From Cupriavidus necator (GTDB lineage Bacteria; Pseudomonadota; Gammaproteobacteria; Burkholderiales; Burkholderiaceae), in the NCBI RefSeq assembly GCF_016127575.1, contig NZ_CP066020.1:360001-392000 (forward strand): DNA of 32,000 nucleotides, in the 5' to 3' direction. The notes beneath the pieces are model-generated. The model saw only the letters and a list, made by a program, of their open reading frames with translations. It had not been told where the DNA came from and made no database searches. The position numbers and the translations under genes are program-made. This document shows, in pieces, positions 1-29,919 of the stretch (position 1 is the stretch's first letter; every line of letters begins with the position of its first letter).

Positions 1-2233
1 GGTACCGCGGCAGGTTGCCGATCTTGGGCACTTCGCGCTTGGCCCCATCCTGCAGGCTTTCGGCAAATTCCCACGTCACCCATTCCAGCACCACAAAGTC
101 GCTGCGGAAACGGTCAATGCCGCGCTCGGCATGCTGCACTGAAGCAAGCCAGTTCGCTTCCAGGTAGCCACGCCGGTAGCCATATGGCTGGGCCGCCGTG
201 CCGTCACCGCCCGTGAACGCGATCAGTCCGAAGATATCGCGCGGATAGCTGGCAATCGGGCTGCCGGTCAGGATATAGCGCCGCTTCGCCGACAGCTGCC
301 AGAGCGCGCGGCTCTGGTCGCTGGCAGGGTTGGACAGGCGCTCACCCTCATCGGCCACCAGCAGGCCGATGCGACGGCGCAGCCGGTGCGCGTACGTGAC
401 GCGGCGCGAGGCCTGCCGGTCGACGGGCATGCGCAAGCGCTCATAGGCGATCAGATTGAGGCGGCCCAGATGCACCAGATCCTCAGGCGACTGAATTACG
501 TGGACGTCCGATGCTGGCATGACTTGCTCCAGTTCGGCACGCATCTCGGCGATCAGGCGTGCCTCGACAACGATGAGGCCGTGCTTCACGCCGGACAGCA
601 GGATCAGGCCCGCCGCGAGACGCGACTTGCCGCAGCCCTGCTCCCACGCGGCCACAGCACCGTTGGGCTTGAGCAGCAGCTCAACCAGGTCTTCCTGTTG
701 GAATTGCCAGTCCAGCCACCGGTCAATGCCCAGCGCCAGCAGCCGCTTGCGCAGCCGCTCGGCCTGCCCGGGATAGCGCACGGCCATCCCCTCGTGCACG
801 ATCTCCCACGCCTGCGCCGATTTCTCGACGCTGTAGCGGGTGGTGATCTCGTCCAACGAGACGACATAACACTTGTCCCGCACCGTGTACTGGTAGCGGC
901 CGTCGGGCTGCCGATCGAAGCGCACCGTCTGGCCGGCCTTGATAACCGGGCCGCCCCAAACCGACGAGTCGACCAGATGCGTCTTCGTGGCCGTACCGAC
1001 GATGGTATCGGCGGCGCCTACGCCGGTCGTCCAGACCGCATGGCGCAAGGGCAACGCCTGACGCATGCTGCGACGCAGACGCTGGCGGAAGTGCTCGAGA
1101 AAGCCCGGTGCAAACTCCGGCTCACCGCCGGCAGACTTCACCATGGCAACGAGCGTCCCCAATGCCCCGATCGGATCAGGCTGCACCAGATAGGCCTCCA
1201 GATCCAGCCGGCCCGTGCCTGCGTAGCGAAAGCCACGGGGCAGGCGCTGGCCCTCCAGCGACACGATGCGGCGCTCCAGCACACGATTGAGCACCATCGC
1301 CTCGACGAACCCGCACTCGAATCCGAGCACGATGCGGCGCCCGTCATGCGAGATGCGTACCCGTTTCTGCGAGGTCACCGGACGCGTGATAGCGGGCCCT
1401 TCGTCATCCAGCAGCTGGTGGCCAAGCCGCGGTTCGCCATAGAGACGATCCTCGGCCTGCAGTTCCAGCGCAGGCAGCGGCTCGGCCAAATCCGACACGG
1501 CTTGCCGCACGAAATCGCGGGCGCGCATGCGGTAGCGCGCGAATACCGCAATGGAGGTGCGCACCTCCGCCCCTTCCTCCCGGAAGGCGCTCGTTGGCAG
1601 GTCGAACACGCCGACCACACGCCTTGCCGCATCGGCGAAGGGTTCGCCGTGGCCGATCACCAGGCCGGCGAACTTGTCGACGAAGGTTGTGGGCAGCAGT
1701 GCCACCACGATCTGCGCCGCGTCGAGTGCCTGGTACAGCCCATATTCATGACTCAGGGCGCTGGTGTTGGCCCCAAATCGGCCCCAGGTAGTGCAGTCGT
1801 AGGGCTTCAGGTGCGGCGACTCCAGATGGATGGAGAACGGCGGGTTAATGAGGGCAACATCGAAGCGCGTCGGATGGATTTCCTCCATGCCGGCGTGCCG
1901 AAAGCTGCCGTCAAAGCCAGCAGCCTCGATGGCATGCTGCACCGCCTCGATCGTTGGTTGGTGCACGTCTACGCCATAGAGGCTGTGCGTGCCCGGGTCC
2001 GCGAACTGCAGCAGGCGGGCCGAGCCGACCGAATTATCGAGTATCGACACCTTCCGGTTAGGCTGCCAGTGGGTTACCGCGCCCCACATCAGGCGGGCAA
2101 TGGCATCGGGCGTGAAAAACTGCGACAGATGGCGCTGACGCGCCGCGTGTAGCTCGCCCTGGTGCGCGATTTTCTCGGCCTGAGAGCCAAGGCTGACAAG
2201 CGCCCGCAAGGGCGCATACCAAGTATTAGACAT
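1..2233 (-). CDS. N6-adenine DNA methyltransferase fused to an SNF2/SF2 helicase. The N-terminal ~744 aa lie in the window; the gene continues past the left edge.
   Basis: My own translation from the ATG at 2233-2231 is an open frame to position 1: MSNTWYAPLRAL... It carries FFTPDAIARLMW, ILDNSVGSARLL (SAM motif I) and LINPPF (motif IV), then WEQGCGKSRLAAG (Walker A-like) and LLVADEGERLSN (motif II). The ORF is missing from the supplied track, which instead shows an antisense shadow ORF at 386..2152. Confidence 0.85.
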   Translation of the reverse strand, partial: MSNTWYAPLRALVSLGSQAEKIAHQGELHAARQRHLSQFFTPDAIARLMWGAVTHWQPNRKVSILDNSVGSARLLQFADPGTHSLYGVDVHQPTIEAVQHAIEAAGFDGSFRHAGMEEIHPTRFDVALINPPFSIHLESPHLKPYDCTTWGRFGANTSALSHEYGLYQALDAAQIVVALLPTTFVDKFAGLVIGHGEPFADAARRVVGVFDLPTSAFREEGAEVRTSIAVFARYRMRARDFVRQAVSDLAEPLPALELQAEDRLYGEPRLGHQLLDDEGPAITRPVTSQKRVRISHDGRRIVLGFECGFVEAMVLNRVLERRIVSLEGQRLPRGFRYAGTGRLDLEAYLVQPDPIGALGTLVAMVKSAGGEPEFAPGFLEHFRQRLRRSMRQALPLRHAVWTTGVGAADTIVGTATKTHLVDSSVWGGPVIKAGQTVRFDRQPDGRYQYTVRDKCYVVSLDEITTRYSVEKSAQAWEIVHEGMAVRYPGQAERLRKRLLALGIDRWLDWQFQQEDLVELLLKPNGAVAAWEQGCGKSRLAAGLILLSGVKHGLIVVEARLIAEMRAELEQVMPASDVHVIQSPEDLVHLGRLNLIAYERLRMPVDRQASRRVTYAHRLRRRIGLLVADEGERLSNPASDQSRALWQLSAKRRYILTGSPIASYPRDIFGLIAFTGGDGTAAQPYGYRRGYLEANWLASVQHAERGIDRFRSDFVVLEWVTWEFAESLQDGAKREVPKIGNLPRY

Positions 2234-2245
2234 GATGGGTTCCAG

Positions 2246-2284
2246 AAAAGAAAAAGCCCCGTCGGTGAAAGTCACTGACGGGGC
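2246..2284 (-). terminator. Rho-independent terminator-like hairpin on the - strand, 12 nt upstream of the MTase-SNF2 start
   Basis: GCCCCGTCGGTGA-AAG-TCACTGACGGGGC forms a 13-bp stem with one G-T pair (2256-2284). It is followed on the - strand by CTTTTTCTTTTC. Confidence 0.55.
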
Positions 2285-2310
2285 GTAAGGGGGATGCAAC
2301 CCGTGGTCGG

Positions 2311-3018
2311 CTATGCGGACTGAGGTGAAATGCCGACGTGCCGCTGGACGAACGCCAGAAGCGTGTCAGCGACTGGCGTGGCGAAGCGCAACTCCCAATA
2401 CTCGTTGTACTGAATGACGTCGAGGCCTGGGAAGGTGCGCCGCTGCTGCGACTCAAACACATCGGCGGGATGGAACTGCGCGAGGCAGCTCGCCAGAACG
2501 GCGTGGCCATTGCGGCGTGCAAAGACCGCGAGTGCAGCGAACGCCTGCGTAACAGGCTCCAACGAGCCGAAATGCAATTGACGCGAGGGCCGCGAGGCAT
2601 CGCTGACCGTCTCCGATATCGCAATGAGCTTGAGCCGAACGAAGACGGTGGAGCGGCGCACGGCCGAACTGCTGGCCAGGCCGAAGGCACGAACGAGTGT
2701 GGCCGCCATCTGCTGCTCGGCTTTCTCCGGCCCATCAGCCTCGTACGTGTCGCGCAGCAGGTTCCAGAAGCGATCCAGGTCCGGCACGACACCGGCCCGG
2801 ATGGCCTCCCAGATATTGGGATAGCCGTCGACAGCCAGGCGTGTTTCGTCGATGGCGATGGGGGCACCGTCGATGCCAAACTCGACGCCGGCCCGCTGGA
2901 TCATCTCGGCGACCTGCTTGCGGCAGAACCGCTTGAGGTCAGCCGACGCTGGCGTCATAGCTTGGAATCCGGAAAGGGTCTCCTCTGCGCGGAATGCCTC
3001 AATGCGTGCGTTGTACAT
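2311..3018 (-). CDS. Hypothetical protein (235 aa), paralog of the gene at 3081..3866
   Basis: ATG start with GGAG 10 nt upstream. It shares blocks with its neighbour: FCR, IRAGVVPDLDRFW vs LRAGKVPDIDGLW, FGL, and FPGLDVIQYNEYWELRFATPVADTLLAF vs YPGLDIVFFKDAWEFKVSHQVADDLMLF. Confidence 0.75.
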   Translation of the reverse strand: MYNARIEAFRAEETLSGFQAMTPASADLKRFCRKQVAEMIQRAGVEFGIDGAPIAIDETRLAVDGYPNIWEAIRAGVVPDLDRFWNLLRDTYEADGPEKAEQQMAATLVRAFGLASSSAVRRSTVFVRLKLIAISETVSDASRPSRQLHFGSLEPVTQAFAALAVFARRNGHAVLASCLAQFHPADVFESQQRRTFPGLDVIQYNEYWELRFATPVADTLLAFVQRHVGISPQSA

Positions 3019-3080
3019 GTACTTCTACTCCAGGAAGACGAGGCGCCCTTAGGCGCCACACGTAAAAGTTTACATGGGGC

Positions 3081-3866
3081 CTACGCGGCTTCCTGCATGA
3101 AGGCCTCGCCGTACTCGCCGAGGAATAGCATCAAATCGTCTGCAACCTGGTGAGAGACCTTGAACTCCCAGGCGTCCTTAAAGAACACGATGTCCAGACC
3201 GGGGTAGCTGAGCTTCTCGCGGTAGTTGTACTCGACGTCGTGCACGTTGACCTGGCTGAGCGCGCCTGCCAGCAGCTGATGACCCGCCTTGGCGGCAAAG
3301 GTGGCGAGGCCAGACAGGCAGTCTGCCGTGCTCTGGTAGCTGTAGTAGCCCACCTTGCGCGCCGTCCGCCGATAGCAGGCTTCGGAGGTGACGTGCTTGC
3401 GCAGGACCACCGCCGAGGCGGTGCGCTTGACTTCGCGCTTGCGGTTGAGGCCGAAGCCGGAAATGATCCGCTGGGCAGCCTGCTGGTAGGCCAGCTCCGC
3501 GCCGCCATGGCCGCCGTAGCGGCGGGCCATCGATGCCCAGAGCCCGTCGATGTCTGGGACCTTCCCAGCCCTCAGGGCTGCGTCGATATCCAGCCCAGCG
3601 CGCTTGTACTCGTCCTCGTGGGCAATATCGAGACGGGCGCCCTGCGGGGCAAACTCGCGCCGGGCGCGATTGACGACGCCGCTGGCGACCGAGCGGCAGA
3701 ACTTCTCCAGCTCTTGCGCCGTACGGTATTCGCTACGGAGTTCAACCGATCGATAGTGGTCAGGGATCGCGGCGACGGTCTCGCGCTCGAAAGCTGCGGC
3801 CGCGGCATACGCGGCGTGGGCTGCTTTCTGGGCGGCGATGAACTGCTCAATGATTTCCTTGTACAT
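3081..3866 (-). CDS. Hypothetical protein (261 aa), paralog of the gene at 2311..3018
   Basis: ATG start, good high-GC third-position codon usage, and the shared sequence blocks listed for 2311..3018. Confidence 0.8.
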   Translation of the reverse strand: MYKEIIEQFIAAQKAAHAAYAAAAAFERETVAAIPDHYRSVELRSEYRTAQELEKFCRSVASGVVNRARREFAPQGARLDIAHEDEYKRAGLDIDAALRAGKVPDIDGLWASMARRYGGHGGAELAYQQAAQRIISGFGLNRKREVKRTASAVVLRKHVTSEACYRRTARKVGYYSYQSTADCLSGLATFAAKAGHQLLAGALSQVNVHDVEYNYREKLSYPGLDIVFFKDAWEFKVSHQVADDLMLFLGEYGEAFMQEAA

Positions 3867-3899
3867 GGTGGTCTCTCAAGAAATGTATAGGAGACCACC
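3867..3899 (-). promoter_or_regulatory. Hairpin abutting the start codon that places the purine-rich SD-like sequence in its 3' arm
   Basis: - strand reads GGTGGTCTC-(15 nt)-GAGACCACC-ATG: a 9-bp perfect stem with a 15-nt loop. Confidence 0.4.
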
Positions 3900-3982
3900 C
3901 GACGGGAGGTCTCCCGAACGGGCCAATAAGGGATAGCAGGCTGACCGGCCGAGTCGCCGATCTCGTCTACCGTAAGGCTGGA

Positions 3983-4465
3983 TCAGTGGAACGCCAGCGC
4001 CGGGCCGGTAGGCATCGGCACGAGACCCAGCGCCAGCCAGTGCGCGACCGGATGATCGGGAAAATCCGGAATCGTTCCAAGTCGGTACAGGGCTGGCACG
4101 TCCAGCAGCTCGCAGTCGCCATCCCGCAGCAAGCGGCGGTAGCGATCGCTCAAGCACAGCCAGGCCAGTTCGGCCCGGGCGGCGTGATCCCACTGCGCAG
4201 GCAAGCGCGACTCATCGAACAGCGCATGGCCTGCCGCATTCATGCAGGCCACCACTTCGTGATAGCGGCCGAAATCGTGGGGGAAGCTCCTGCGCACGAA
4301 TGACAGCACTTCCGGCGCGTGCACGCCGAAGATCCGGCCCAGTTGGCGGATGTACACCGCGCACTCCATTGGAGAGCGCTTGGCATAGTCATCGCTGCCG
4401 ACCTGCGCGCATTCTTCTTCCCACGGTGCGGGACCGACTTCGATTTCGAGGAATTTCTGGAACAT
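3983..4465 (-). CDS. Hypothetical protein (160 aa)
   Basis: Internal ATG of the 229-aa track ORF (MFQKFLEIEVGPAPWEEECAQVG...), preceded by AAGGAAACGCC. The upstream 69 codons of the track ORF are Arg/Pro/Ser-rich junk. Confidence 0.7.
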   Translation of the reverse strand: MFQKFLEIEVGPAPWEEECAQVGSDDYAKRSPMECAVYIRQLGRIFGVHAPEVLSFVRRSFPHDFGRYHEVVACMNAAGHALFDESRLPAQWDHAARAELAWLCLSDRYRRLLRDGDCELLDVPALYRLGTIPDFPDHPVAHWLALGLVPMPTGPALAFH

Positions 4466-4498
4466 GGCGTTTCCTTGGATGTAACTTGGGGAAACGCC
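4466..4498 (-). promoter_or_regulatory. Hairpin abutting the start codon with the SD in its 3' arm
   Basis: - strand reads GGCGTTTCC-(15 nt)-GGAAACGCC-ATG: a 9-bp perfect stem with a 15-nt loop. The geometry is the same as at 3867-3899. Confidence 0.4.
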
Positions 4499-4550
4499 CC
4501 ACCGGGGAGCGTTCCCCGGTGGGTAGTGGATTGGCGGCTGACCAGGACGG

Positions 4551-4760
4551 TCAGCCCGCAGTGGCAGGCTTCTGATCCAGATGCAGCAGCTTCGCGAGAA
4601 GCCAGCTGATGAGAACCAGGAACTCGATTTCGGCAACGAGGTGCAGCTGCATGGCAGCAAGGCGATCGTCACCAGTGGTCACAAGGAAGTACAGCGCCGC
4701 GAACAGATTGATGACGGTCGCGAGAACAGCCAGCGTGCTGATACGGGATGAAATACGCAT
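4551..4760 (-). CDS. Small membrane protein (69 aa, two hydrophobic helices)
   Basis: MRISSRISTLAVLATVINLFAALYFLVTTGDDRLAAMQLHLVAEIEFLVLISWLLAKLL..., with GGAG 7 nt upstream of the ATG at 4760. This is the 3' part of the 260-aa track ORF. Confidence 0.5.
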   Translation of the reverse strand: MRISSRISTLAVLATVINLFAALYFLVTTGDDRLAAMQLHLVAEIEFLVLISWLLAKLLHLDQKPATAG

Positions 4761-4926
4761 GAGAAGGCTCCGAAAACGGGGCCTTCCCCATTGGGAAAAG
4801 CCCCAATGGGTGAAAAAGCAGATGGCCGGTACGCCGGCAGGGTCGATGCGCAGTAGCGCGGAGAGTGGACGAATCTTACCGCGCGTCGAACGCCGGGACA
4901 AGGACCGAACCGCGGGCCACGCAAAC

Positions 4927-5448
4927 TCAGCCGCGCTTTGCCCCGATGCGATCTCGTCGGTTGGCCTCGCGTAGCCGGTCGACCACGGCCCAGCGCCGCT
5001 GCGCAACCTCCTCGGGGTTCTCCAGATTGGAGAAGTCAGGCAATGGGCCATCGTCGAAGGCCTGGTAGTCGTCGGGGATCTTGCCTGTGGCCTTGAGTTC
5101 CGATCGAAGCCGCTTCGATAGCCCGTAGTTGATCTCGGTGATCGCCACGTAGTCCCACCGGGCGGGCAACGCTTGTTCCGAAAACCATACCTCGCCCTCG
5201 CCTGGCGCAACCAGCGCCACCACGTCATAGATTCTGCCCGCCGGCGAGGGCACGGCCCGCACTTCGAAGCGCAGCACCTCGCTACGCGGATGCCAGAAGA
5301 CACGATCCAGATAGCGCCGGAAGGTGAGTGCATCCATCAGCGCGATATCGTCGTAGGACGGATCGCCCGGTGGAATGGCTTCGCGCTCGCCCTTTGGGCG
5401 CGCGCCGAGGGACACCTCGCGGAACTTGAGAATGGGGAGCTCAGACAT
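4927..5448 (-). CDS. Hypothetical protein (173 aa)
   Basis: ATG at 5448 (MSELPILKFREV...) with GGAAAG upstream. The track start at 5472 is a TTG. Composition is protein-like. Confidence 0.7.
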   Translation of the reverse strand: MSELPILKFREVSLGARPKGEREAIPPGDPSYDDIALMDALTFRRYLDRVFWHPRSEVLRFEVRAVPSPAGRIYDVVALVAPGEGEVWFSEQALPARWDYVAITEINYGLSKRLRSELKATGKIPDDYQAFDDGPLPDFSNLENPEEVAQRRWAVVDRLREANRRDRIGAKRG

Positions 5449-5550
5449 GGCTTTCCGTGAAAGACGCGGCAAATTCTAAAGCTTTCGCCTTCAGGTGCGG
5501 CGGAAATCAGCCTGAGAATGATACGCGGCGCAACATGCGCGCCGGCCGCC

Positions 5551-5577
5551 TTGACTTCTCGACGGCCTCGGTATCTT
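5551..5577 (+). promoter_or_regulatory. Promoter-like element TTGACT-N15-TATCTT for the helicase operon
   Basis: CTTGACTTCTCGACGGCCTCGGTATCTT, ending 30 nt before the ATG at 5608. It shares the CTTGACTTC core with the sites at 16498 and 26961. Confidence 0.45.
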
Positions 5578-5607
5578 GGATGTAAGAGCAATCCAAACCT
5601 TCCCGCC

Positions 5608-6057
5608 ATGCGCTTCTCTTGCCTCGAACGCCACACCCCCATCGACTTCAATACCCGTCGCCAGGCCGCCTTCGCGCGCAAACAGCAGCGCGAGCGCGAC
5701 AGGTACCCGCTCTTTGCGGATCACGTGGCCGCCGAGCAGCATTCTCCCGACGAGGAACTTGCCCGTCGGCAACGGCGCTCCGACAACCTTGAAAGGACAA
5801 CGCGCGCCTTGCACGCACGCGTCTGGCGAGAGAAGCGCGCCATCTACTTCTCGCTCTCCGATGAACAACGTGCGGAGATCCGCGCAAAGTGGAAGGCATG
5901 GACCGGGCCTACAACCGCCCTCTACTTCGCCTACATCGTCGACACGGTCAGTGGCGAGTATGAGCGACGCTCGGAAGCCGCACGTGCAGACACACTGGCC
6001 ATCCGCCGACGCGTTCTAGCCTCGCTGCCCGAGCAAACTGCATTGGAGATCGCCTGA
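5608..6057 (+). CDS. Hypothetical protein (149 aa), first gene of the helicase operon
   Basis: ATG at 5608 (MRFSCLERHTPIDF...) lies downstream of the promoter-like motif. Its stop overlaps the helicase start (TGATG at 6055-6059). No clear SD. Confidence 0.6.
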   Translation: MRFSCLERHTPIDFNTRRQAAFARKQQRERDRYPLFADHVAAEQHSPDEELARRQRRSDNLERTTRALHARVWREKRAIYFSLSDEQRAEIRAKWKAWTGPTTALYFAYIVDTVSGEYERRSEAARADTLAIRRRVLASLPEQTALEIA

Positions 6058-7517
6058 TGGTCCCCACCGACGAACAGGCTTCCGTTGTCGACGCGGTCAA
6101 GGCCGGCGGGCCGCTGAAAGTCAAGGCGTATGCGGGCGCCGGCAAGACGTCGACGCTACGCCTGGCTGCCGAGGCCCGCGGCCGCGCGCGAGGGCTGTAT
6201 CTGGCCTTCAACAAGGACATCGCCAACGAGGCTGCCCAGAAATTCCCGCAGAACACCCGCTGCCGTACCGTCCACTCGCTCGCGTACAGCGCCACGCCGC
6301 CGGAACTCACCCGCAAGCTCAAGAACCCGGTCGAGCCGCCGCATCAGCTCGCTTTGCGCTACGGTCTCGCCAAGCTGCGCCTGCCGACGACGATCGGCAA
6401 GGATCTCGAACTGAGCGCCAGCAAGGTCGCCCGAATAGTGATGGACGGCGCGGCGCGTTTCTGCCGCTCCGCACAGGCCGAGCCTCTTGCGTGGCACATT
6501 CCAGTGGAGTCGATCGTGAAGGAGGAGGAGGCCGAGCATCTGCGCGACTCGCTGCTGCCCTACGTCAAGCGGCTCTGGGGTGAATACCTCGACCCCGCTT
6601 CCCCGTCAGCGATCGTTCACGACGTCTACGTAAAGAGGTGGGAGCGCAGCCGGCCGCGCATTGGTGCCGACTTCATCCTGTTCGACGAAGCGCAGGATGC
6701 CGATGGCCTGATGCTGTCGGTGCTGCGCGCGCAGCAGTCCCAGGTCATCTACGTCGGCGACCCGTACCAGCAGATCTACGAATGGCGCGGCGCGGTCAAC
6801 GCCATGGAGCATATTCGTGCACCTGAATGCGCTCTCACCGAATCGTTCCGTTTCGGCCCGGCCATCGCTCAACTGGCCAGCCGCGTGCTGCGGCTCATGG
6901 ACGAGGAAACGCCCGTCCGTGGACAGGACCACGTTGAGTCCCGGATCCTGCACGACTCAACGCCAGGACAGGATCGCTTCGACGCCATCCTGTGCCGCAA
7001 GAACGCGACGGTCCTGACGCACCTTGCCCAGGGCATCGGCCGGGGCGATCGCGTGGCGGTGCGCGCCAACGTCGACGAGCTCCGCGCCTTTGCCGACGGC
7101 GCCGAGCAGCTCATGCGCGGCCAGCGCATCGGCTACCCCGCCACCCTCGCCCTGTTCGAAACGTGGGAAGAGGTCCAGGAATATGCCGAATCGTTCGCCG
7201 GCCGCGACCTGAAGCCCCTCGTCACGTTGATCGACAACGAGGGCGTGGACTATCTGCGCCTGATCCTCACCCGCGTCTCGCCAGAGGATGAGGCCGACTA
7301 CATCGTGTCGACCGTCCACCGGGCCAAGGGCCTCGAATGGGAGCGCGTGCAGCTCGCCGGCGACTTCAAGTTCAAGACCGGCGACGACGGCGAACTCACC
7401 ATGGCACCGGAAGAGATGCGCCTGCTTTACGTCGCCATGACACGCGCGAAGCGCCTGCTCGATGTGAGCGAGATCCGGCGCGACCTCTACACCATGTTCC
7501 GGGAAGCCGGTGTCTAA
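6057..7517 (+). CDS. UvrD/Rep-like superfamily 1 DNA helicase (486 aa)
   Basis: Walker A YAGAGKTSTL, motif II ILFDEAQD, YQQIYEWRGA, and motif VI TVHRAKGLEWERV followed by LLYVAMTRAK. Confidence 0.9.
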   Translation: MVPTDEQASVVDAVKAGGPLKVKAYAGAGKTSTLRLAAEARGRARGLYLAFNKDIANEAAQKFPQNTRCRTVHSLAYSATPPELTRKLKNPVEPPHQLALRYGLAKLRLPTTIGKDLELSASKVARIVMDGAARFCRSAQAEPLAWHIPVESIVKEEEAEHLRDSLLPYVKRLWGEYLDPASPSAIVHDVYVKRWERSRPRIGADFILFDEAQDADGLMLSVLRAQQSQVIYVGDPYQQIYEWRGAVNAMEHIRAPECALTESFRFGPAIAQLASRVLRLMDEETPVRGQDHVESRILHDSTPGQDRFDAILCRKNATVLTHLAQGIGRGDRVAVRANVDELRAFADGAEQLMRGQRIGYPATLALFETWEEVQEYAESFAGRDLKPLVTLIDNEGVDYLRLILTRVSPEDEADYIVSTVHRAKGLEWERVQLAGDFKFKTGDDGELTMAPEEMRLLYVAMTRAKRLLDVSEIRRDLYTMFREAGV

Positions 7518-7527
7518 AGGAGAGACC

Positions 7528-8757
7528 ATGATCACCGTGCGGATTGGCGGGAACGAGTACCCGCTGGATGAGGTTTTGGAAGATCCCGGCCGCTACGCGC
7601 GCCACCTCGAGCGTGCCAAGACGATCCAGGGATTCGCGGAATGCGGCTGCGCAGAGGGCCGGCCGCGGCCCAAACTGGTGATCCGGCGACACCGCGATAT
7701 TTTCCTGCTCGCGCGCTGGCCGGAACAGGCGTTCCGGCACGCCGAAGGATGCCCCTTCCACCGGAAGACCCAGACAACGCCCGGCGCCGCCGACAGTCTC
7801 GACGCATTTCGCATGCGCGATGGCCGCCACGATATCCGCCTCGACGCCTCACTTTCGGTCAGCACCCACACACCGGCCAAAACCGTCCAGCGAACGCCGA
7901 AGGGCCAGTTCACAAAGCCGCAACGGCGATCCGCAGGCCTGCTGGCGCTCCTCGAATTCGCTTGGGAGCAGGCCGGTCTTAATGTCTGGCCTGGTACCGG
8001 TGCCCGCAGCTGGAACGGCTGCTGGTCACAGTTGACGGCCGAACTGGACGATTGCAGGATCAATGGCAAGGACGCCGACGGCCTGCTGCACGTCATGCAG
8101 CGGTGGGACCCGGCGCGGAAGTCCGAAATCCTGGCCGAGTTCGAGGCGTGGCAGGCTAGGCTTTCGCCTACCGCCGCCGGGAATCCCCGCGGCATTCTGA
8201 TCGGCGAAATCGAGTCGCACGCCGCCACCCAGTACGGAGGGAAGGTCGTCCTGCGCCAGAGCACGCAGCGGTTCTTCATGTCCTCGGGACTGTACGAACG
8301 CCTGCAGGCTTCCTTTGGCACCGCGCTGGCCGGCATCGGACGGGCCGAGCAACGGTGTGTCGCTGTCCTGCTCGTTGAGAAGTCCCGCTCGAACTACCTG
8401 ACGGTCGTCGATATTGGCGCCATGCTGGCAAACCGGCAGTTCCTGCCTTGCGACTCCTCCCATGAGGTCGCCATGGCCGATCACCTGGTCGCTCTGCGCC
8501 GGGCATTTCGCAAGCCGCTGCGGCATATCGGCCGAGCGGAGGTACACCCCGACTTCGTCCTGACCGATGTCCAGCCCGAAACGGTCATCGAAGTACTCGG
8601 CATGGCCGGCAATCCCGCGTACGACGCTCGGACGGCGAGCAAGCGCCAGCACTACCAGACTGCCGGCGTTCCATTTCTGGAATGGGATGCGGTAGCCACG
8701 TCGATTTCCAGCGTCCGCGTGCCGCCGGCTGGCACACGGGCAGCCGATGCACGCTGA
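7528..8757 (+). CDS. DUF1173-like protein (409 aa) with an N-terminal CxC...CxxH cluster and a C-terminal PD-(D/E)xK-like segment
   Basis: ATG at 7528 preceded by AAAGGAGAG. ECGCAEG...(35 aa)...GCPFH resembles a SWIM-type metal site. The C-terminal VHPDFVLTDVQPETVIEVLG resembles nuclease motifs II and III. The family assignment is from memory of ICE annotations. Confidence 0.75.
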   Translation: MITVRIGGNEYPLDEVLEDPGRYARHLERAKTIQGFAECGCAEGRPRPKLVIRRHRDIFLLARWPEQAFRHAEGCPFHRKTQTTPGAADSLDAFRMRDGRHDIRLDASLSVSTHTPAKTVQRTPKGQFTKPQRRSAGLLALLEFAWEQAGLNVWPGTGARSWNGCWSQLTAELDDCRINGKDADGLLHVMQRWDPARKSEILAEFEAWQARLSPTAAGNPRGILIGEIESHAATQYGGKVVLRQSTQRFFMSSGLYERLQASFGTALAGIGRAEQRCVAVLLVEKSRSNYLTVVDIGAMLANRQFLPCDSSHEVAMADHLVALRRAFRKPLRHIGRAEVHPDFVLTDVQPETVIEVLGMAGNPAYDARTASKRQHYQTAGVPFLEWDAVATSISSVRVPPAGTRAADAR

Positions 8758-9118
8758 TCGGATCCCGATCGCCGACGCCCTGTATGGCAAGGCGCTGGAA
8801 CTGGTGCATCAGCACCGCGCCGCGTCAGTTGCGCTTCTGGAGCGCCATCTCGGCCTCGGGCTGGACATGGCTGAAGCGCTGCTGCAACGAATGGCCAGGG
8901 AAACCACAGCCGTGCGACGCGTGCCGAGCGGCCTGTATCTCTACACACACGGCCCCATCGGAGAAGAGTTGGCGGCACTCCACGGGTTCGCGCAGGAGGT
9001 CCTCGCAGCGCTCGCAAGCGACAGTGTGGATGTCGCCGATCTGCGAGCCGCTGCAGGCCGCTACGGTCTCCCGGTTCCGCGCCAGGCTGCCCCAACGCGA
9101 CCGCCGCGCCGCCGCTGA
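8747..9118 (+). CDS. FtsK-gamma-like winged-helix protein (123 aa)
   Basis: DALYGKALELVHQHRAASVALLERHLGLGLDMAEALLQRMARETTAVRRV matches the FtsK gamma pattern (D.L...A...V.....S...LQR....G...A....M......V). The start overlaps the upstream gene by 11 nt. Confidence 0.65.
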   Translation: MHADRIPIADALYGKALELVHQHRAASVALLERHLGLGLDMAEALLQRMARETTAVRRVPSGLYLYTHGPIGEELAALHGFAQEVLAALASDSVDVADLRAAAGRYGLPVPRQAAPTRPPRRR

Positions 9119-9125
9119 ACATGGC

Positions 9126-9308
9126 TCAGGCGTCCACGACCTGAGCCAGACAAAGCGGATCGTCCTCACCTCGTTCCGTCGGCCCTACTCGGCGCAGCGG
9201 ATTTCGATGGCCGCATCCCTTGCAGATGAAAAAGAAGCCTCTCTCGTCCAGTTCTGGATCGGCCGCCGAAAACATCACCGACAGCCGGCATTCGGTGCAG
9301 GTCCACAT
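9126..9308 (-). CDS. Small zinc-ribbon protein (60 aa)
   Basis: MWTCTECRLSV...FFFICKGCGHRNPL has CxxC...CxxC, with GGGGGA 6 nt upstream of the ATG at 9308. The rest of the 252-aa track ORF is Arg-rich junk. Confidence 0.55.
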   Translation of the reverse strand: MWTCTECRLSVMFSAADPELDERGFFFICKGCGHRNPLRRVGPTERGEDDPLCLAQVVDA

Positions 9309-9322
9309 AGCAGTCCCCCGTC

Positions 9323-9349
9323 TTGACAATGCCCACCGCGCGATACGCT
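9323..9349 (+). promoter_or_regulatory. Promoter-like element TTGACA-N15-TACGCT upstream of the DUF5131/MTase operon
   Basis: CTTGACAATGCCCACCGCGCGATACGCT has the same geometry as four other sites. It gives a 240-nt leader to the ATG at 9590. Confidence 0.35.
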
Positions 9350-9589
9350 GACTCCAATGTAGCCGCGCACAAGCTAACCAGCCAGCCCAATGAAACCTGC
9401 CGCCCCTCATATCTCCCCGAAGACACCTGCCGCTACGGACATCGGCCGCGCGTCGCAGCCGCACTCGCCAGTCAGCGTCGGGCGAGGTGTCTGCGAGCTT
9501 TGCGGCTCGATTGCATCGCACCTCCACGTCGAGGCCAACCGGCCCGAGCGCGACACACGAACCCTGGACCTGTTCGAGGACCACCAACA

Positions 9590-10711
9590 ATGAGCGAAAA
9601 CACAAAGATCGAATGGACCGACCACAGCTGGAATCCGTGGGAGGGCTGCCAGCACGTTGGCCCTGGCTGTGACCACTGCTACGCGGAGACCCGTAATGCC
9701 CGCTTTGGCGGTGGCCAGGCCCAGAACTGGGGGCCCGGCGCCCCGCGCCGGCGCACGTCCGCCACCAACTGGCGCAAGCCGTTCCGCTGGAACCTGGCGC
9801 ACGCTGCCTTCGCCGCGGTGCACGGGCGCCGCCAGCGCGTCTTCTGCGCGAGCTTGGCCGATGTGTTCGACAACGAGGTGCCAATCGAATGGTTCATCGA
9901 CATGCTCGATGTGTGGCGGCAGACCCCAAACCTCGACAAGCTCGTGCTGACCAAGCGCATCGGCAACGCCATGAAGCGGCTGGGCGAAGCGTTCAATGCA
10001 CTGATGCTGCGCGACGACTGCGCGGAGAATCCCTTGGTGCCGTGGCTGGCCACGTGGATCGCAGGCAACGCACCCGCGGATATCTGGTTGGGGGCCACGA
10101 TCGTCAATCAGGCCGAAGCGGTACGAGACATTCCGAAGCTGTTGCGTGTCCCCGCCAAGACCCGCTTCCTGTCCATGGAGCCCCTGCTCGGCCACGTCGA
10201 CGTGTTCTCGACAATCACGGGCGAGCTGCTACACACGTCCGGCAACGATTACAACCCTGGTTCGATCGACTGGATCATCGCAGGCGGTGAGAGCGGAAGC
10301 GACGCACGCCCGATGCACCCTGCCTGGTCGCGCAGCTTGCGGGACCAGTGCGCAGCGGCGGGCGTGCCCTTCCTCCTAAAGCAGTGGGGCGAGTGGCATA
10401 CCGCTTCCGTGCTCACGACCTCTGGCGAGCCGGCATTCCGAACGTTCGAGACGTTTGAGCAATGGGTAAACAAGGCCAGCACCTGGGTCGGCGGCGGCAT
10501 CTGCCTCGACAAGCACGGCCAGCAGCTACAGAAGGGAGACGATTTCATCCGAGCACGCGACGAATGCCGCTTCCCAGTCACCGTCATGGACCGGGTGGGC
10601 AAGAAGGCAGCAGGCCGGCAACTCGACGGGATGCTGCATGACGCTTTCCCTGTGACCTCGTTGGACGTGGCGGAGGCCTGCCACCGCGCCCTGGGTCGTG
10701 GAGCAGTCTGA
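9590..10711 (+). CDS. Phage Gp37/Gp68 family (DUF5131) protein, long form (373 aa)
   Basis: The hallmark N-terminus is present: MSENTKIEWTDHSWNPWEGCQHVGPGCDHCYAE (three-Cys motif). The C-terminal ending is GRQLDGMLHDAFP. GAGGA lies 9 nt upstream of the ATG at 9590; the track start at 9323 is an extension. Confidence 0.85.
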   Translation: MSENTKIEWTDHSWNPWEGCQHVGPGCDHCYAETRNARFGGGQAQNWGPGAPRRRTSATNWRKPFRWNLAHAAFAAVHGRRQRVFCASLADVFDNEVPIEWFIDMLDVWRQTPNLDKLVLTKRIGNAMKRLGEAFNALMLRDDCAENPLVPWLATWIAGNAPADIWLGATIVNQAEAVRDIPKLLRVPAKTRFLSMEPLLGHVDVFSTITGELLHTSGNDYNPGSIDWIIAGGESGSDARPMHPAWSRSLRDQCAAAGVPFLLKQWGEWHTASVLTTSGEPAFRTFETFEQWVNKASTWVGGGICLDKHGQQLQKGDDFIRARDECRFPVTVMDRVGKKAAGRQLDGMLHDAFPVTSLDVAEACHRALGRGAV

Positions 10712-11952
10712 TGCGCCAACTAGACCTGTTCGCACACGTCGCCGCGGCGTTTGCAGACGCGTCCGAAGATGGGCTCTCCACCGGCGCTCTCTACGATATT
10801 GTGGCGCGTTCGGCGGGCATCGATCACAGCGCGGCCACGGCGCGCGTTCCGATCGGGACTGCAAAGGCACTGCATAGCCCATTCAAGCGTGCGGTTCGCT
10901 GGCACCAGCAGACGCTCAAGACGCTCGGTGTTGTCGAGCGTGTCGCCGATCGCACGGGATTCTGGCGCCTCACGCAGCCGGTCACCAAGGACCTCGACCG
11001 TGCAGCTGACGGCGTCAAGCTGGTCGCGTTCAGCACGATGCTCGGCATGGCCATCTGGGCTCGAAATGAGGATGTGTTTCGAGGATTGGCGGAACCCATC
11101 GCCTTGTGCGTCACGTCGCCGCCATACCCACTGCGGCAAGCCAGGGCATATGGCAATCCTACGGATAACCAGTATGTCGACTTCATCTGCGGGGCGCTCG
11201 AGCCGATCGTTGCCAATCTCGTGACCGGCGGCAGCATCGTCCTGAACATTTCCAACGACATCTTCCAGCACCGCAGTCCCGCCCGATCCCTCTATATGGA
11301 GCGGCTTGTGCTGGCCCTTCATGACCGACTCGGCTTGGCGCTGATGGACCGCATTCCATGGGTGAACTACAGCAAGCCGCCGGGCCCGACTCGATGGGCA
11401 TGCGTGGACCGTGTCCACCTCGCAACGGCATACGAGCCATTACTATGGCTGACGAACGATCCAGGCCGTGTCCGTGCCGACAACCGCCGCGTGCTGCAGG
11501 CCCATACCGAACGGCATCGGCGGCTGCTCGAAGCCGGTGGCGAACAGCGGTCAGCCAGTTACGGTGATGGTGCCTATCGGATCCGACCCCAGTCCTTTGG
11601 CAATCCGACATCCGGCCGGCTTTCCCGCAATGTCGTCGAACGCGGCCACCGCTGCGCCGACACCCTGGCCTACCGCAGGGCGGCCGCGACGCTTGGATTG
11701 CCCGCGCAAGGCGCCATGCAGCCTACCGCCATCCCGGACTTCTTTACAAGATTCCTGACCGAGCCTGGCGACCTGGTCGTCGATCCGTTCGGCGGCACGA
11801 TCCGTACGGGCCTCGCCGCCGAGCGATTGGGCAGGCGCTGGATCGTCACGGAATGGATCCTCCAGTATGCTCGCGGCGCCGCCGAGCTGTTTCGTCAGTC
11901 CGACGGCTTCCTGATGCACCCCGCCCTCCAATGGGCTTCCCAAGGTCGATAG
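10711..11952 (+). CDS. Beta-class N4/N6 DNA methyltransferase (413 aa) with an extra ~115-aa N-terminal domain
   Basis: Motif IV CVTSPPYPL precedes motif I LVVDPFGGTIRTGLAAERLGRRW, the order typical of the N6_N4_Mtase family. The start overlaps the DUF5131 stop (TGATG at 10709-10713). Confidence 0.9.
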   Translation: MRQLDLFAHVAAAFADASEDGLSTGALYDIVARSAGIDHSAATARVPIGTAKALHSPFKRAVRWHQQTLKTLGVVERVADRTGFWRLTQPVTKDLDRAADGVKLVAFSTMLGMAIWARNEDVFRGLAEPIALCVTSPPYPLRQARAYGNPTDNQYVDFICGALEPIVANLVTGGSIVLNISNDIFQHRSPARSLYMERLVLALHDRLGLALMDRIPWVNYSKPPGPTRWACVDRVHLATAYEPLLWLTNDPGRVRADNRRVLQAHTERHRRLLEAGGEQRSASYGDGAYRIRPQSFGNPTSGRLSRNVVERGHRCADTLAYRRAAATLGLPAQGAMQPTAIPDFFTRFLTEPGDLVVDPFGGTIRTGLAAERLGRRWIVTEWILQYARGAAELFRQSDGFLMHPALQWASQGR

Positions 11953-11954
11953 CA

Positions 11955-12227
11955 ATGCAGCACCACGACAACGAAGACAGAGAATTTCCCGAGCCCGAGA
12001 CCGTCCTTGCCATTCGGGGGGCAATCGCCACCGGCCGGATGGGCGGCCCGATGGGCGAGCCCGGCCACTGGCTCAACGAGTTCTGGCAGGTCGGCGCGGC
12101 GTTGCGTGATCACGCTGAGATCCTCCAGGGTGTCCAGGGCGCAAATCGAAGAGCCTTCCTGAGCACCACAGCCGACTATCTGGCTGCCAGCGAAACAACT
12201 TCTGAACACGCCGGCGACCGGAACTGA
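11955..12227 (+). CDS. Hypothetical protein (90 aa)
   Basis: The ATG lies 2 nt after the MTase stop. MQHHDNEDREFPEPETVLAIRG..., GC-rich third positions, weak SD. Confidence 0.45.
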   Translation: MQHHDNEDREFPEPETVLAIRGAIATGRMGGPMGEPGHWLNEFWQVGAALRDHAEILQGVQGANRRAFLSTTADYLAASETTSEHAGDRN

Positions 12228-12284
12228 CCGAGCCCCAGCCGCGGGCAGGCATAATTCCGGCATTTTTCAGCACTGGATCTCGCC

Positions 12285-12875
12285 ATGCCTAGCGGCCTCT
12301 TTCAATGCGCGCACTGCGGCGGCGCGCCCACCTACGTCGCCGGCCGGCTCCAGGCCGTCATCGCCTGCGACGAATGCGGGATGTCAACGCCGCCGGTCGA
12401 GAACGATCCCAGGAATAGGGACGCCGCCTTCCCGCGACTCAGCGCCATCTGGAACAGCCGCGTCGACCTTCGCCCGGCCGACAAGGAAGCCATCTCCATG
12501 ATCGCCCGGCGTGCGCTGACCTCCTCCGACATCCCCTATTTCCTCAATCTTCTCGCCTCCACAACCAGCGACTGGGAAGCCAACGGACCGATGTTCGCGA
12601 CGATGGCTGCAGCCCTTACCCAGCCCGGCTACGAGTTCAAGCACGTCGGCCCGCCCGAAACTGTTCTCTCGCAAGCCGCCCGCTACCAGAAGCTGCTGCA
12701 GCGCGCGAAGGTCATCCATATCGATGGCGCTCCGATGGTGCGCTTTGAGCATGTGCCGGCCTTGGCCGCGGAAGTCGCGGAGGAGGGTCTGGCGGATCAG
12801 GATTGGCCGCTCCTCGACATGGAAGAATTCGTCGGTAAGGCCATCGACAGCCTGCCGGATCATTGGCAGCCTTGA
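12285..12875 (+). CDS. Protein with an N-terminal Lar-like (restriction alleviation) zinc ribbon (196 aa)
   Basis: FQCAHCGGAPTYVAG...VIACDECGMSTPP...RLSAIWNSR matches the Lar family pattern CxxCGG...CxxC...WNxR. The C-terminal ~125 aa are unassigned. Confidence 0.65.
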   Translation: MPSGLFQCAHCGGAPTYVAGRLQAVIACDECGMSTPPVENDPRNRDAAFPRLSAIWNSRVDLRPADKEAISMIARRALTSSDIPYFLNLLASTTSDWEANGPMFATMAAALTQPGYEFKHVGPPETVLSQAARYQKLLQRAKVIHIDGAPMVRFEHVPALAAEVAEEGLADQDWPLLDMEEFVGKAIDSLPDHWQP

Positions 12876-13922: not shown

Positions 13923-14204
13923 TCACTCCTGATTGACAGCCTCTCGGAATCGCTGCCCGGCCTTGAACTTCACGGTCCTGGCAGCTTCAACCTTGATCTC
14001 CTCGCCGGTGCGCGGGTTACGAGCCATGCGCTCGGCCCGCTCGCCCTTGCTGAATGTTCCGAAACCTACCAGGGAAAGCGCGTCGCCCTTGGCCACGGCA
14101 TCCATGATGGCGTGCAAGGTCACGTTCAGCGCTTCTTCGGCCTTGGCCTTCGTCAACCCGTCTACACCGGCGGCGATCGCTTCGATCAGTTCGGCTTTCG
14201 TCAT
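13923..14204 (-). CDS. HU/IHF-family DNA-binding protein (93 aa)
   Basis: MTKAELIEAIAAG...LVGFGTFSKGERAERMARNPRTGEEIKVEAARTVKFKAGQRFREAV, with AAGGAGA upstream of the ATG at 14204. Confidence 0.9.
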   Translation of the reverse strand: MTKAELIEAIAAGVDGLTKAKAEEALNVTLHAIMDAVAKGDALSLVGFGTFSKGERAERMARNPRTGEEIKVEAARTVKFKAGQRFREAVNQE

Positions 14205-15610: not shown

Positions 15611-16178
15611 ACGGTCCTCGGAAGGTTGCGCTTCGCGCATGCGGCGCCAGGCGAATGCCCGCCCATGGACGCCCGCCGCTCATTGCTGGACAGCGCCGAC
15701 CCCGATCCGGCATTGCCCCCTCGGTGCACCGGGGTACCACCCCCGGCTTACCGGCCCACCCAGCCGGTCCCGCCACTACCTTCCTGTCCTTTAGCGATGC
15801 CAAACCGATCAGCCCTGAGCATGGAAGCAATGCGTCGTGACTGTCCGCTGTGCGCGTGAAGGCCTCCGCCTTCACGCCGCTGCGCGGCCACCCTATCCGG
15901 TGCATCTCGCGATGCCGGTCCGGATGGCGCCAGGATCAAGTCCTGAATGCCTCCGGCCTATGCCGTGATGGGTGATTACTTGTTGCGCCGTTCTGGTACC
16001 GGTAGCGCCCCCCGGGTCGATATTGCTCAGAAGCTTGCGTCCACCGTCGTATCGGTACGTACCAGCTCCCCGCCCCAAAGCCGGATCATTCCCGCCGCGG
16101 TGTGTCGGGCTTCGTGATCCGCGCCCAGCCAACTGGCTGAAAGGGCGTCTGGCATTCGTGGAAATTCGACAGAGCACC

Positions 16179-18547: not shown

Positions 18548-18754
18548 TCAGTGCAGCGTCGGCAAGCAGAAATCGAATGCAGAGTCGAGAGACAGGCTGC
18601 GTTCTACCAACACCATCCGGCCGGATTCGTCGCGGCGATAGATGTGGAAGAACTGGGCCTCCGACTGGCCAGCCTGCACATCACGGTTCGGCGTGCTCCG
18701 CATGGCGTGAATGTGCAGTCTGTTGACGATCATGGTGAAGCCCTTCTGCGGCAT
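18548..18754 (-). CDS. Hypothetical small protein (68 aa)
   Basis: ATG at 18754 with GGAG 7 nt upstream. MPQKGFTMIVNRLHIHAMRSTPNRDVQAGQSEAQFFHIYRRDESGRMVLVERSL... The start is uncertain; an alternative ATG lies at 18733. Confidence 0.45.
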   Translation of the reverse strand: MPQKGFTMIVNRLHIHAMRSTPNRDVQAGQSEAQFFHIYRRDESGRMVLVERSLSLDSAFDFCLPTLH

Positions 18755-18856
18755 TGCATTCTCCAGAGAGACCTGCCACGCGGGGGACTCCGCCCCTGTG
18801 GGGCGGACCCACAGGGCAGAGGTTGAAAGTGATGCCACCAGGCGGTGGCGGAAAGG

Positions 18857-19939: not shown

Positions 19940-20094
19940 GGGATGACTCCGGGTGGAGTAGGTTTGTCGATGCCTGAGACAGGCGGAGAAACGCTTGCTC
20001 AAAAGACATCCCGGCAGAAGCCAGAAGGTCTTTTCAGCATCGCGTATGCGAAAGCGAATGGGGAATGGCCGAAATGGCCGGGAAAAGGAGACTG

Positions 20095-20119: not shown

Positions 20120-20152
20120 GCAGTTAAAACAGATGCGTCGACGAGCTGCACG

Positions 20153-20719: not shown

Positions 20720-20731
20720 GTTGTTTCCTTG

Positions 20732-21517: not shown

Positions 21518-21525
21518 GGTTTGGC

Positions 21526-29912: not shown

Positions 29913-29919
29913 GCAATTC

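Follow-up and report, generated by a model that had tools for sequence, protein, structure and literature searches.

We analysed a 32,000-nucleotide (nt) stretch of Cupriavidus necator DNA (NCBI RefSeq assembly GCF_016127575.1, contig NZ_CP066020.1, positions 360,001 to 392,000; hereafter 'the window'), in which four genes at positions 5608–9118 encode a small arginine-rich protein (ORF1, from open reading frame), a UvrD-like helicase of superfamily 1 (SF1), a member of the DUF1173 protein family and a winged-helix protein resembling the gamma domain of FtsK. The operon structure of these genes is real, and their combination is a lineage-specific assembly, found in Cupriavidus and Ralstonia, of families that have otherwise spread separately, not a conserved system. 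The constant element among the four would be DUF1173. We see about an even chance that the genes are one operon within an establishment and anti-restriction array of the pHG1/pMOL28-type plasmid backbone, in which DUF1173 would be a backbone nuclease acting on DNA that is single-stranded or branched, with the helicase as an optional local partner. The catalytic activity, substrate, protein contacts and biological role discussed below for the operon products are ones that we infer.

A four-gene operon on the megaplasmid pHG1

Window positions 5400–9300 are 100% identical to the C. necator H16 megaplasmid pHG1 (NC_005241.1; a window position equals the record position minus 328,856), a 452-kb element typed as conjugative, with relaxases of types MOBH and MOBP and a mating-pair system of type T. 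Because of this identity we drop the reading given in a first-pass annotation of the window, in which the operon was assigned to an integrative and conjugative element: the genes lie instead in the backbone of the conjugative megaplasmid family pHG1/pMOL28/pRALTA, whose common backbone was already known (PMC2864759). All four genes are co-directional, each start/stop-coupled to the next, and their boundaries equal those of the RefSeq coding sequences on pHG1. The layout is as follows (aa, amino acids).

5473–5607, no strand assigned: intergenic region from which ORF1 and a 181-aa minus-strand gene (4927–5472) diverge; operon promoter presumed here from the gene layout
5608–6057, plus strand: ORF1, 149 aa, first gene of the operon (ATG...TGA)
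6057–7517, plus strand: SF1A UvrD-like helicase, 486 aa, stop codon TAA, identified by Pfam UvrD models and motifs
7516–7524, plus strand: Shine–Dalgarno-like AAAGGAGAG, overlapping the helicase stop and ending 3 nt before the DUF1173 ATG at 7528
7528–8757, plus strand: DUF1173 protein, 409 aa, identified by its PF06666 match
8747–9118, plus strand: FtsK-gamma-type winged-helix protein, 123 aa; winged helix at about residues 8–60 (8768–8926)

The tight coupling at three junctions that had been described on first reading was reproduced exactly, as were all of the open reading frames. At 6055–6059 the sequence TGATG gives the ORF1 stop and the helicase start one base in common; a 10-nt spacer (7518–7527) separates the helicase from DUF1173; and the ATG of the fourth gene at 8747 creates an 11-nt overlap with the end of DUF1173 (8747–8757). 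The related plasmid pMOL28 carries the same four genes with junctions of a 4-nt overlap, an 11-nt gap and a 14-nt overlap. We judge all four to be real genes because of their coding-type composition (GC content of 0.72–0.84 at third codon positions against 0.44–0.51 at second positions) and because each has protein-level homologues in related plasmids (40–97% identity). A consensus scan of 5300–9700 found no sigma-70-like promoter, so that the operon promoter is placed only by inference, and terminator-like sites occurred at shuffle expectation. Neither a repeat search of the flanking intergenic regions nor an Rfam scan of the whole window returned, respectively, anything convincing or any match.

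Domain model of the DUF1173 protein

The product of the third gene matches the DUF1173 family over its full length (PF06666; 128.4 bits against a cut-off of 25, E = 4e-37; residues 24–367 on profile positions 16–366 of 386), in keeping with its earlier description as a DUF1173-like protein of about 400 aa with an N-terminal cysteine cluster; NCBIfam returned no match for it. The family is large, with about 2,000 representatives at 50% identity. A full-length AlphaFold2 model built from a 35-sequence alignment (predicted local distance difference test score (pLDDT) 87.4, predicted template-modelling score 0.86) has four parts: an N-terminal Cys/His module, a helical region, a beta-barrel resembling an oligonucleotide/oligosaccharide-binding (OB) fold, and a C-terminal alpha-beta-beta-beta-alpha-beta domain. 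Three of these are mapped on the window.

7642–7752, plus strand: predicted zinc ligands C39, C41, H71 and C75 in the N-terminal domain (residues ~1–110), from conservation
8182–8433, plus strand: OB-fold-like beta-barrel (residues ~219–302; beta1–3, helix, beta4–5), from DSSP assignment of the model
8440–8697, plus strand: predicted PD-(D/E)xK-fold C-terminal domain (residues ~305–390), from the model, Foldseek and conservation

Conservation was computed on 191 family members reaching down to 22% identity. Within the N-terminal module H71 and C75 are present in 191 of 191, and C39 and C41 are missing only where a sequence has a gap. The metal-ligand order is thus CxC...HxxxC (C39-x-C41...H71-x3-C75), a motif that a 2011 study of the family had also noted (PMC3045609). 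H78 varies, for which reason the CxC...CxxH cluster (ECGC...GCPFH) proposed in the first-pass annotation is corrected to these four ligands. Its likening of the cluster to a SWIM zinc finger (CxCxnCxH) falls as well, ruled out by the ligand order and by the lack of a PF04434 match at E <= 0.1.

Foldseek searches with the full-length model placed the archaeal nuclease Bax1 on top, followed by many OB-fold domains, among them PolD DP1, LysRS/AspRS, Stn1, RPA32 and RecO (probability up to 1.0, E at least 3.6e-3), and the predicted viral structures of BFVD added the OB proteins LEF-3 and the ExoVII large subunit. Going by the model, these OB-type matches would belong to residues ~219–302. Since the full-length search gave no match with E < 1e-3 in either the PDB or BFVD, the C-terminal domain was modelled separately (residues 297–409; pLDDT 87, secondary-structure order H-E-E-E-H-E). 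Asked of this model, the question raised earlier of whether the C-terminus takes a nuclease fold has a positive answer with modest statistics: the best PDB structure is again Bax1 (6p66_B; E = 1.5e-3, probability 1.0, template-modelling (TM) score ~0.46, 20% identity), and the other top PDB matches – bunyavirus cap-snatching endonucleases, the R2 endonuclease, VRR_NUC and Hjc – are all PD-(D/E)xK nucleases. In BFVD the matches were a Vsr-like mismatch endonuclease (probability 1.0, 23% identity), DUF559, DUF2726 and restriction-enzyme types, while the sub-threshold Pfam matches of the C-terminal domains (Uma2, DUF2726, DUF790, Vsr and DUF1064) are all of the same clan.

The residues of the predicted domain that are conserved in at least 90% of the 191 sequences are E313 (96%), K329-P330 (K329 93%), P341-D342 (95%), D347, E355 (93%), G358, Y365, K372 (91%) and W386. 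The segment PDF...IEVLG had been thought to resemble PD-(D/E)xK motifs, and this idea gains from the conservation of PDF (D342) and IEV (E355) as well as from the modelled fold. A tie between the DUF1173 C-terminus and PD-(D/E)xK nucleases was itself proposed in 2011 (PMC3045609). The statement in the first-pass annotation that DUF1173 has no assigned function is therefore true as it stands, yet it passed over a nuclease-fold relationship and a zinc motif that were already in print.

Two groups of known enzymes invite comparison. The first is made up of the minimal PD-(D/E)xK endonucleases of the Vsr, DUF559 and DUF2726 type, which were matched in the predicted viral structures. These families are likewise not known to carry the standard ExK lysine that DUF1173 lacks (see below). 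In Escherichia coli vsr follows dcm, which may be compared with the DUF1173 genes that follow a Dcm methyltransferase gene on IncHI2 plasmids (see below). DUF1173 differs in being four times larger and in carrying zinc and OB modules, and most of its copies do not stand beside a cytosine methyltransferase. A role as a classical restriction enzyme was set aside, many copies being without an adjacent methyltransferase.

The second is archaeal XPB–Bax1, in which Bax1 (Pfam DUF790) is a PD-(D/E)xK-type nuclease encoded beside, and working with, a helicase, and in which the Bax1 nuclease domain is the best-matching solved structure whichever DUF1173 model, full-length or C-terminal, is searched. 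An HHsearch analysis in 2011 likewise linked DUF1173 to DUF790 (PMC3045609). In our data DUF790 appears below threshold in two of 22 C-terminal domains, and the resemblance to XPB–Bax1 is structural only. It is also incomplete: the partner here is an SF1 UvrD-like helicase rather than the superfamily 2 (SF2) helicase XPB, DUF1173 adds the N-terminal zinc module and the OB-like barrel, the genes are on a bacterial plasmid, and helicase and nuclease do not stay paired.

DUF1173 persists where its neighbours do not

Whether the four genes are co-conserved in related elements had been proposed as a check on their acting together, and largely they are not. Among 55 genomic loci collected with a DUF1173 profile, a full-length helicase stands beside DUF1173 in 11, all of them from Cupriavidus, Ralstonia or close relatives, and no helicase occurs within 6 kb in any Paraburkholderia, Caballeronia or actinobacterial DUF1173 locus of this set. 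A Paraburkholderia-like contig carries a 54%-identical helicase 5 kb from DUF1173 on the opposite strand. Natural decay of the operon, with the helicase deleted or truncated, is seen in three Cupriavidus relatives: the helicase is cleanly absent from L011 and cut to its last 45 residues in L014, with DUF1173 intact in both, while in L032 a deletion has joined the first 49 residues of the helicase to DUF1173 residues 255–403. Two overlapping helicase alignments in L008 suggest a duplication or a frameshift, and L012 has an intact helicase and DUF1173 without the FtsK-gamma gene. As the helicase has been lost repeatedly while DUF1173 was kept, we regard the helicase as dispensable.

The same picture emerges from PLSDB, where a query with the concatenated helicase and DUF1173 sequences found 4,246 plasmids carrying either gene and only 18 in which the two stand side by side and collinear; of these, the 17 listed come without exception from Cupriavidus or Ralstonia. 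Searched by itself, DUF1173 turns up on 2,473 plasmids, of which 1,665 are typed as conjugative, with records that include 878 from Klebsiella, 403 from Escherichia and 349 from Salmonella. The helicase family is on 1,837 plasmids, IncC included; the ORF1 family on 219, of which 133 are Pseudomonas plasmids; and the FtsK-gamma gene on 20, from Cupriavidus only. Each of the four families is thus found by itself on other plasmids. The position of DUF1173 is kept across elements of Cupriavidus, Ralstonia, Paraburkholderia and Caballeronia (37–93% identity), and this fixed place in the backbone, across genera and incompatibility groups, points to transactions of the plasmid's own DNA rather than to accessory defence.

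These counts bear directly on the possibility that helicase, DUF1173 and gamma protein, perhaps with ORF1, form a dedicated helicase–nuclease complex of Cupriavidus and Ralstonia plasmids that would unwind and cut DNA, resembling XPB–Bax1 or a split AddA/RecB. Such a complex would account for start/stop coupling at three junctions that is kept in pMOL28 and other relatives, and it fits both the intact set of helicase motifs (see below) and the fact that Bax1, to which the DUF1173 nuclease domain is structurally closest, acts in complex with a helicase. The Paraburkholderia-like contig, with helicase and DUF1173 in the same region and in different operons, can be read the same way, as can Streptomyces loci in which DUF1173 follows a relaxase that has an SF1 helicase domain of its own. 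However, adjacency in only 18 of 4,246 plasmids, the retention of DUF1173 in L011 and L014 after loss of the helicase, the solitary state of most DUF1173 genes and of the helicase genes examined, and the lack of the gamma gene in L012 despite an intact helicase and DUF1173 all speak against it, and we consider a dedicated complex plausible though somewhat unlikely.

A short helicase of the FBH1 branch

The second gene encodes, as had been recognized at first reading, a short SF1 enzyme of the UvrD type. Its translation holds motifs Q, I (GAGKT), Ia, II (DEAQD), III (GDPYQQIY), IV, V and VI (VAMTRAK), and it scores above cut-off for the Pfam families UvrD_C (PF13361; 47.4 bits, cut-off 25.6), UvrD-helicase (PF00580; 38.4, cut-off 23), UvrD_C_2 (PF13538; 37.5, cut-off 27.4), AAA_30 and AAA_19. 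It belongs to none of the well-known equivalog groups: against the NCBIfam models for UvrD, Rep, PcrA, RecB and AddA it reached at best 42 bits, where the cut-offs are 543–1697. The nearest solved structure by sequence is human F-box DNA helicase 1 (FBH1; 9xzj_F, E = 3e-40), far ahead of UvrD, Rep and GajB structures at ~1e-4, and the phage DNA helicase family phrog_1967 matches it over its full length (E = 8.5e-93). On sequence grounds the enzyme is a distinct short branch, with FBH1 closest, of the UvrD/Rep/PcrA group of SF1A helicases, which it resembles in having all of the SF1 motifs and the UvrD Pfam scores and from which it differs in its length of only 486 aa, in lacking an F-box and in being plasmid-borne. 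RefSeq labels the gene '3'-5' exonuclease'; Pfam found no separate exonuclease domain in the protein, and we take the name as an annotation label. In two further records examined, an IncC plasmid and a Burkholderia glumae plasmid, there is no DUF1173 within 6 kb of the helicase.

A second gene annotated as an 'ATP-dependent helicase' lies elsewhere on pHG1 (record positions 384767–386494; 32768–34495 of locus L061), with the transfer genes on one side and rep/parAB on the other. This gene is not that of the operon helicase; it appears to correspond to the 'uvrD' that work on pMOL28 locates ahead of parAB (PMC2864759).

Helicase plus nuclease is a common defence architecture, and defence genes are frequent on plasmids, so an anti-phage or anti-mobile-element system with the helicase as sensor or motor and the nuclease as effector, in the manner of Gabija or Hachiman, comes readily to mind. 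The PADLOC models, run on all four proteins, recovered no complete defence system, in agreement with the earlier view that no named system fits. What they did recover were weak GajB-model matches for the helicase (E ~1e-16) and a weak match of the DUF1173 C-terminus to the candidate PDC-S68 (E = 4.5e-6); the former are explained by a general likeness to UvrD, FBH1 being matched far better. No GajA partner was found, nor, among the PADLOC matches listed, one of the HamA or HamB type. The position of DUF1173, moreover, is a fixed and syntenic one in the backbone across genera and not a variable island, and its neighbours are of anti-restriction and establishment types (Lar, orphan methyltransferases, PsiA and SSB). 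We therefore find a defence role very doubtful.

As to the individual systems, Gabija was rejected, since none of the four proteins matched GajA, the OLD-type ATPase-TOPRIM nuclease encoded beside GajB, and only the generic GajB-model matches were seen. For Hachiman, neither HamA (a DUF1837 nuclease) nor HamB is among the PADLOC matches listed (the best 25 of the 48 families for the helicase are all GajB or RTasHel), and this system does not apply because the helicase is of SF1 and HamB of SF2.

A stand-alone FtsK-gamma fold with an altered surface

By itself the fourth protein scores below the cut-off for FtsK_gamma (PF09397; 25.3 bits against 30.6), but 10 of 10 homologues match that family (best E = 2.6e-10), and a profile built from homologues has as its top PDB matches the FtsK-gamma structures 2j5o, 2ve8 and 2j5p (E = 1e-6) and also matches the XerD-gamma fusion 5dcf. 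These results bear out the initial recognition of a stand-alone FtsK-gamma winged helix. Close homologues already appear in some records as 'FtsK gamma domain-containing protein' or 'DNA translocase FtsK'; NCBIfam gave no match, and PHROGs, apart from the helicase match given above, gave weak FtsK-like matches only. Helices 1 and 2 and the winged-helix pattern align with the gamma domains of Pseudomonas aeruginosa and E. coli FtsK, from which the protein differs in standing alone at 123 aa without a translocase motor and in carrying a conserved helical tail of ~55 aa after the winged helix.

It differs, too, where FtsK makes its contacts. In the alignment the FtsK stretch RKLKIGYNRAARMI faces the homologue consensus RhLrvgleaaealL, and the window protein has RHLGLGLDMAEALL; the FtsK stretch IGYNRAAR becomes LGLDMAEA, so that a basic contact stretch for DNA and XerD is replaced by neutral and acidic residues. 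In FtsK-gamma, IGYNRAAR (alpha2-loop-alpha3) contacts both the FtsK-orienting polar sequences (KOPS) and XerD (PMC5052618). The first-pass annotation had called this the fold that reads KOPS polarity motifs; with the contact residues replaced, sequence reading in the style of FtsK is unlikely here. The alignments indicate that the fold is FtsK-gamma-derived and that its known functional surface is not kept.

The altered surface also tells against a part in multimer resolution, in which the gamma protein would activate XerD or a nearby tyrosine recombinase while helicase and nuclease process recombination intermediates. There is something to be said for such a role: an isolated FtsK-gamma domain suffices to activate XerD (PMC3130261; PMC5052618), the XerD-gamma fusion is one of the FtsK-gamma structures that the homologue profile matches, 5 kb downstream there is a conserved integrase-like gene (14453–15640, minus strand), and the structural matches of the nuclease domain include junction resolvases of the Hjc type. 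Yet the XerD/KOPS surface KIGYNRAAR (PMC5052618) has become GLGLDMAEA, the integrase-like gene is kept in many elements that have no gamma gene, and the gamma gene is confined to Cupriavidus plasmids. We hold multimer resolution to be highly improbable.

In Paraburkholderia and Caballeronia a protein of 168–195 aa follows DUF1173; considered as a diverged FtsK-gamma protein, it proved unrelated (hhalign probability 0.1%).

ORF1

ORF1, at the head of the operon, matched no Pfam, NCBIfam, PHROG or PADLOC family. Homologues occur in 14 of the 55 related loci (53–93% identity), and elsewhere, in settings without the other three operon genes, they are found after a Dcm methyltransferase gene, within Lar/ParB arrays or beside PRTRC genes.

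The company that DUF1173 keeps

The four-gene cluster is syntenic in pMOL28 and other Cupriavidus and Ralstonia megaplasmids, where it lies beside the PRTRC cassette. In pHG1-type plasmids one flank holds that cassette, a methyltransferase-SNF2 fusion and N6 methyltransferases, and the other holds co-directional genes for DUF5131, an N6/N4 methyltransferase, a small ORF and Lar, followed by HU, integrase-like, ParM-like, primase-like and SSB genes. Across the Burkholderiaceae loci, Lar-like (23 loci), integrase-like (18) and DUF5131 (~20) genes recur near DUF1173, a wider association than that of the helicase.

Beyond this family the neighbours change. On IncHI2 plasmids (L059 and L060) DUF1173 follows an orphan Dcm methyltransferase gene and a small ORF, with a divergent thermonuclease gene, and on a Klebsiella IncHI1B/FIB plasmid (L058) it lies among genes for a thermonuclease, a phospholipase D-family nuclease, H-NS and PsiA. 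The Streptomyces loci (in the range L035–L056) are of two kinds. In six (L036, L038, L041, L048, L053 and L055) DUF1173 comes directly after a TrwC relaxase-helicase of 1,560–1,633 aa; in ten its start overlaps the stop of a gene whose 455-aa product matches AbiEii nucleotidyltransferases at a borderline level, and this pair is flanked by two conserved large proteins without family assignment.

Gene content of this kind recalls the anti-restriction gene arrays of plasmid leading regions, the general concept of which is set out in PMC11541004. The likeness consists in dense, co-directional, tightly packed small genes and in neighbours such as Lar, orphan N6, N4 and C5 methyltransferases, the methyltransferase-SNF2 fusion, SSB, PsiA and H-NS.

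A possible role in plasmid establishment

Read in this way, the establishment array of the window would comprise ORF1, the helicase, DUF1173, the FtsK-gamma-like protein, DUF5131, the N6/N4 methyltransferase, the small ORF and Lar. The zinc module and OB-like barrel of DUF1173 would hold single-stranded or branched DNA, and the PD-(D/E)xK-fold domain would cut it by means of E313, D342 and E355, with K329 or K372 taking the place of the ExK lysine; the protein might thereby process or protect plasmid DNA at entry, establishment or maintenance. By analogy with XPB–Bax1, the 3'–5' UvrD/FBH1-like helicase translated from the gene upstream probably feeds DUF1173 unwound DNA. The FtsK-gamma-like protein is most likely an adaptor with a changed binding surface.

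Several observations weigh against this account. As regards the enzyme, the structural matches of the nuclease domain are modest (the best being Bax1, with the E-value and TM score given above); the DUF1173 alignment profile found no match in the PDB even at E <= 10; position 357, the canonical site of the ExK lysine, is L, Y or W; and the 2011 analysis found that the active-site signature of DUF1173 is not conserved, so that the domain could be a non-catalytic DNA binder (PMC3045609). As regards the setting, the MOBH relaxase gene of pHG1 is ~42 kb from the operon and the origin of transfer is unmapped, and for both reasons the term 'leading' or 'establishment' region is drawn from gene content. 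In the main text and available supplements of the leading-region anti-defence survey (PMC11541004), DUF1173, DUF5131 and FtsK_gamma go unmentioned and none of the four operon families is named. Finally, tight coupling is kept in those relatives with an intact helicase whose junctions were read, which also fits a genuine local complex.

The points concerning the active site lead to the further possibility that DUF1173 has the nuclease fold without catalytic activity and does no more than bind DNA. The missing ExK lysine and the published classing of the family as one without an active-site signature (PMC3045609) would be explained at once. Against this, E313, D342, D347, E355, K329 and K372 are 91–96% conserved in the 191 members, down to 22% identity, and such a set of acidic and basic residues is the pattern expected of a working metal site with a moved lysine. 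The conservation suggests that the acidic residues of DUF1173 have stayed and that only the lysine has moved, with K329 and K372 as candidate substitutes. We consider a dead enzyme distinctly unlikely; on the conservation and the model, DUF1173 is probably an active metal-dependent nuclease.

A more ambitious form of the establishment hypothesis would make DUF1173 a widespread establishment nuclease acting on transferred or newly replicated plasmid DNA, which in pHG1-type megaplasmids would have been built into a bacterial XPB–Bax1-like machine with a recruited FBH1-like helicase and a re-purposed FtsK-gamma adaptor. Plasmids, among them the IncHI2 and Klebsiella IncHI1B/FIB resistance and virulence plasmids that carry DUF1173, would then depend on it to establish themselves efficiently or to overcome host barriers, for instance restriction, SOS or nucleoid silencing. 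This fuller version seems to us rather unlikely.

Already known were the RefSeq and UniProt labels of the four genes (hypothetical protein, 3'-5' exonuclease/helicase, DUF1173 family protein and, in some records, FtsK-gamma-domain protein) and the nuclease-fold link of 2011. New here are the domain model of DUF1173, with its predicted zinc module, OB-like barrel and nuclease domain; its family-wide conserved site; the scale of its presence on plasmids; and the finding that its association with the helicase and gamma genes is local. The four-gene combination itself, as a local mosaic, is little remarkable. DUF1173 is of wider interest: a well-folded predicted nuclease with a conserved site keeps its place in the backbone of thousands of conjugative plasmids, several clinically important ones among them, in the company of genes that aid plasmids in entering and settling in new hosts. 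If DUF1173 turns out to serve establishment or anti-defence, that toolkit would gain a new class of enzyme, and with it a possible target for limiting plasmid spread; the pHG1/pMOL28 version, with its helicase upstream, would be a natural system in which to ask what DNA substrate DUF1173 acts on.

Other genes of the window

Downstream of the operon, the plus-strand genes at 9590–12875 begin with DUF5131 (the phage Gp37/Gp68 family). Its stop and the start of the N6/N4 DNA methyltransferase gene overlap at 10711, and the small ORF and a Lar-family restriction-alleviation protein follow. On the minus strand at 1–2233 lies the large methyltransferase-SNF2 helicase fusion, annotated as a 'helicase-related protein', which extends past the start of the window. 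Beyond it (1184–7019 of locus L001) is a complete PRTRC cassette of ParB-related and ThiF-related genes and their partners, kept in pMOL28 and in Burkholderia plasmids; in the PRTRC literature we found nothing on the four operon genes. The ParM/actin-like 'PRTRC system protein D' is encoded apart from the rest of that cassette (16701–17699, plus strand).

The integrase-like protein of the multimer-resolution argument combines an Integrase_1 domain with a Fis-type HTH_8 domain and is kept in 18 related loci; it may provide pHG1 with a resolution or recombination function of its own. A HU-family gene lies at about 13923–14204, and the minus-strand region 18548–21547 holds the primase-like gene, the SSB gene and two hypothetical genes. 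At the far end of the window (~28165–32000, minus strand) are type IVb conjugative pilus genes, including two prepilin genes and one for a PilV shufflon-type tip adhesin (~28665–29912).

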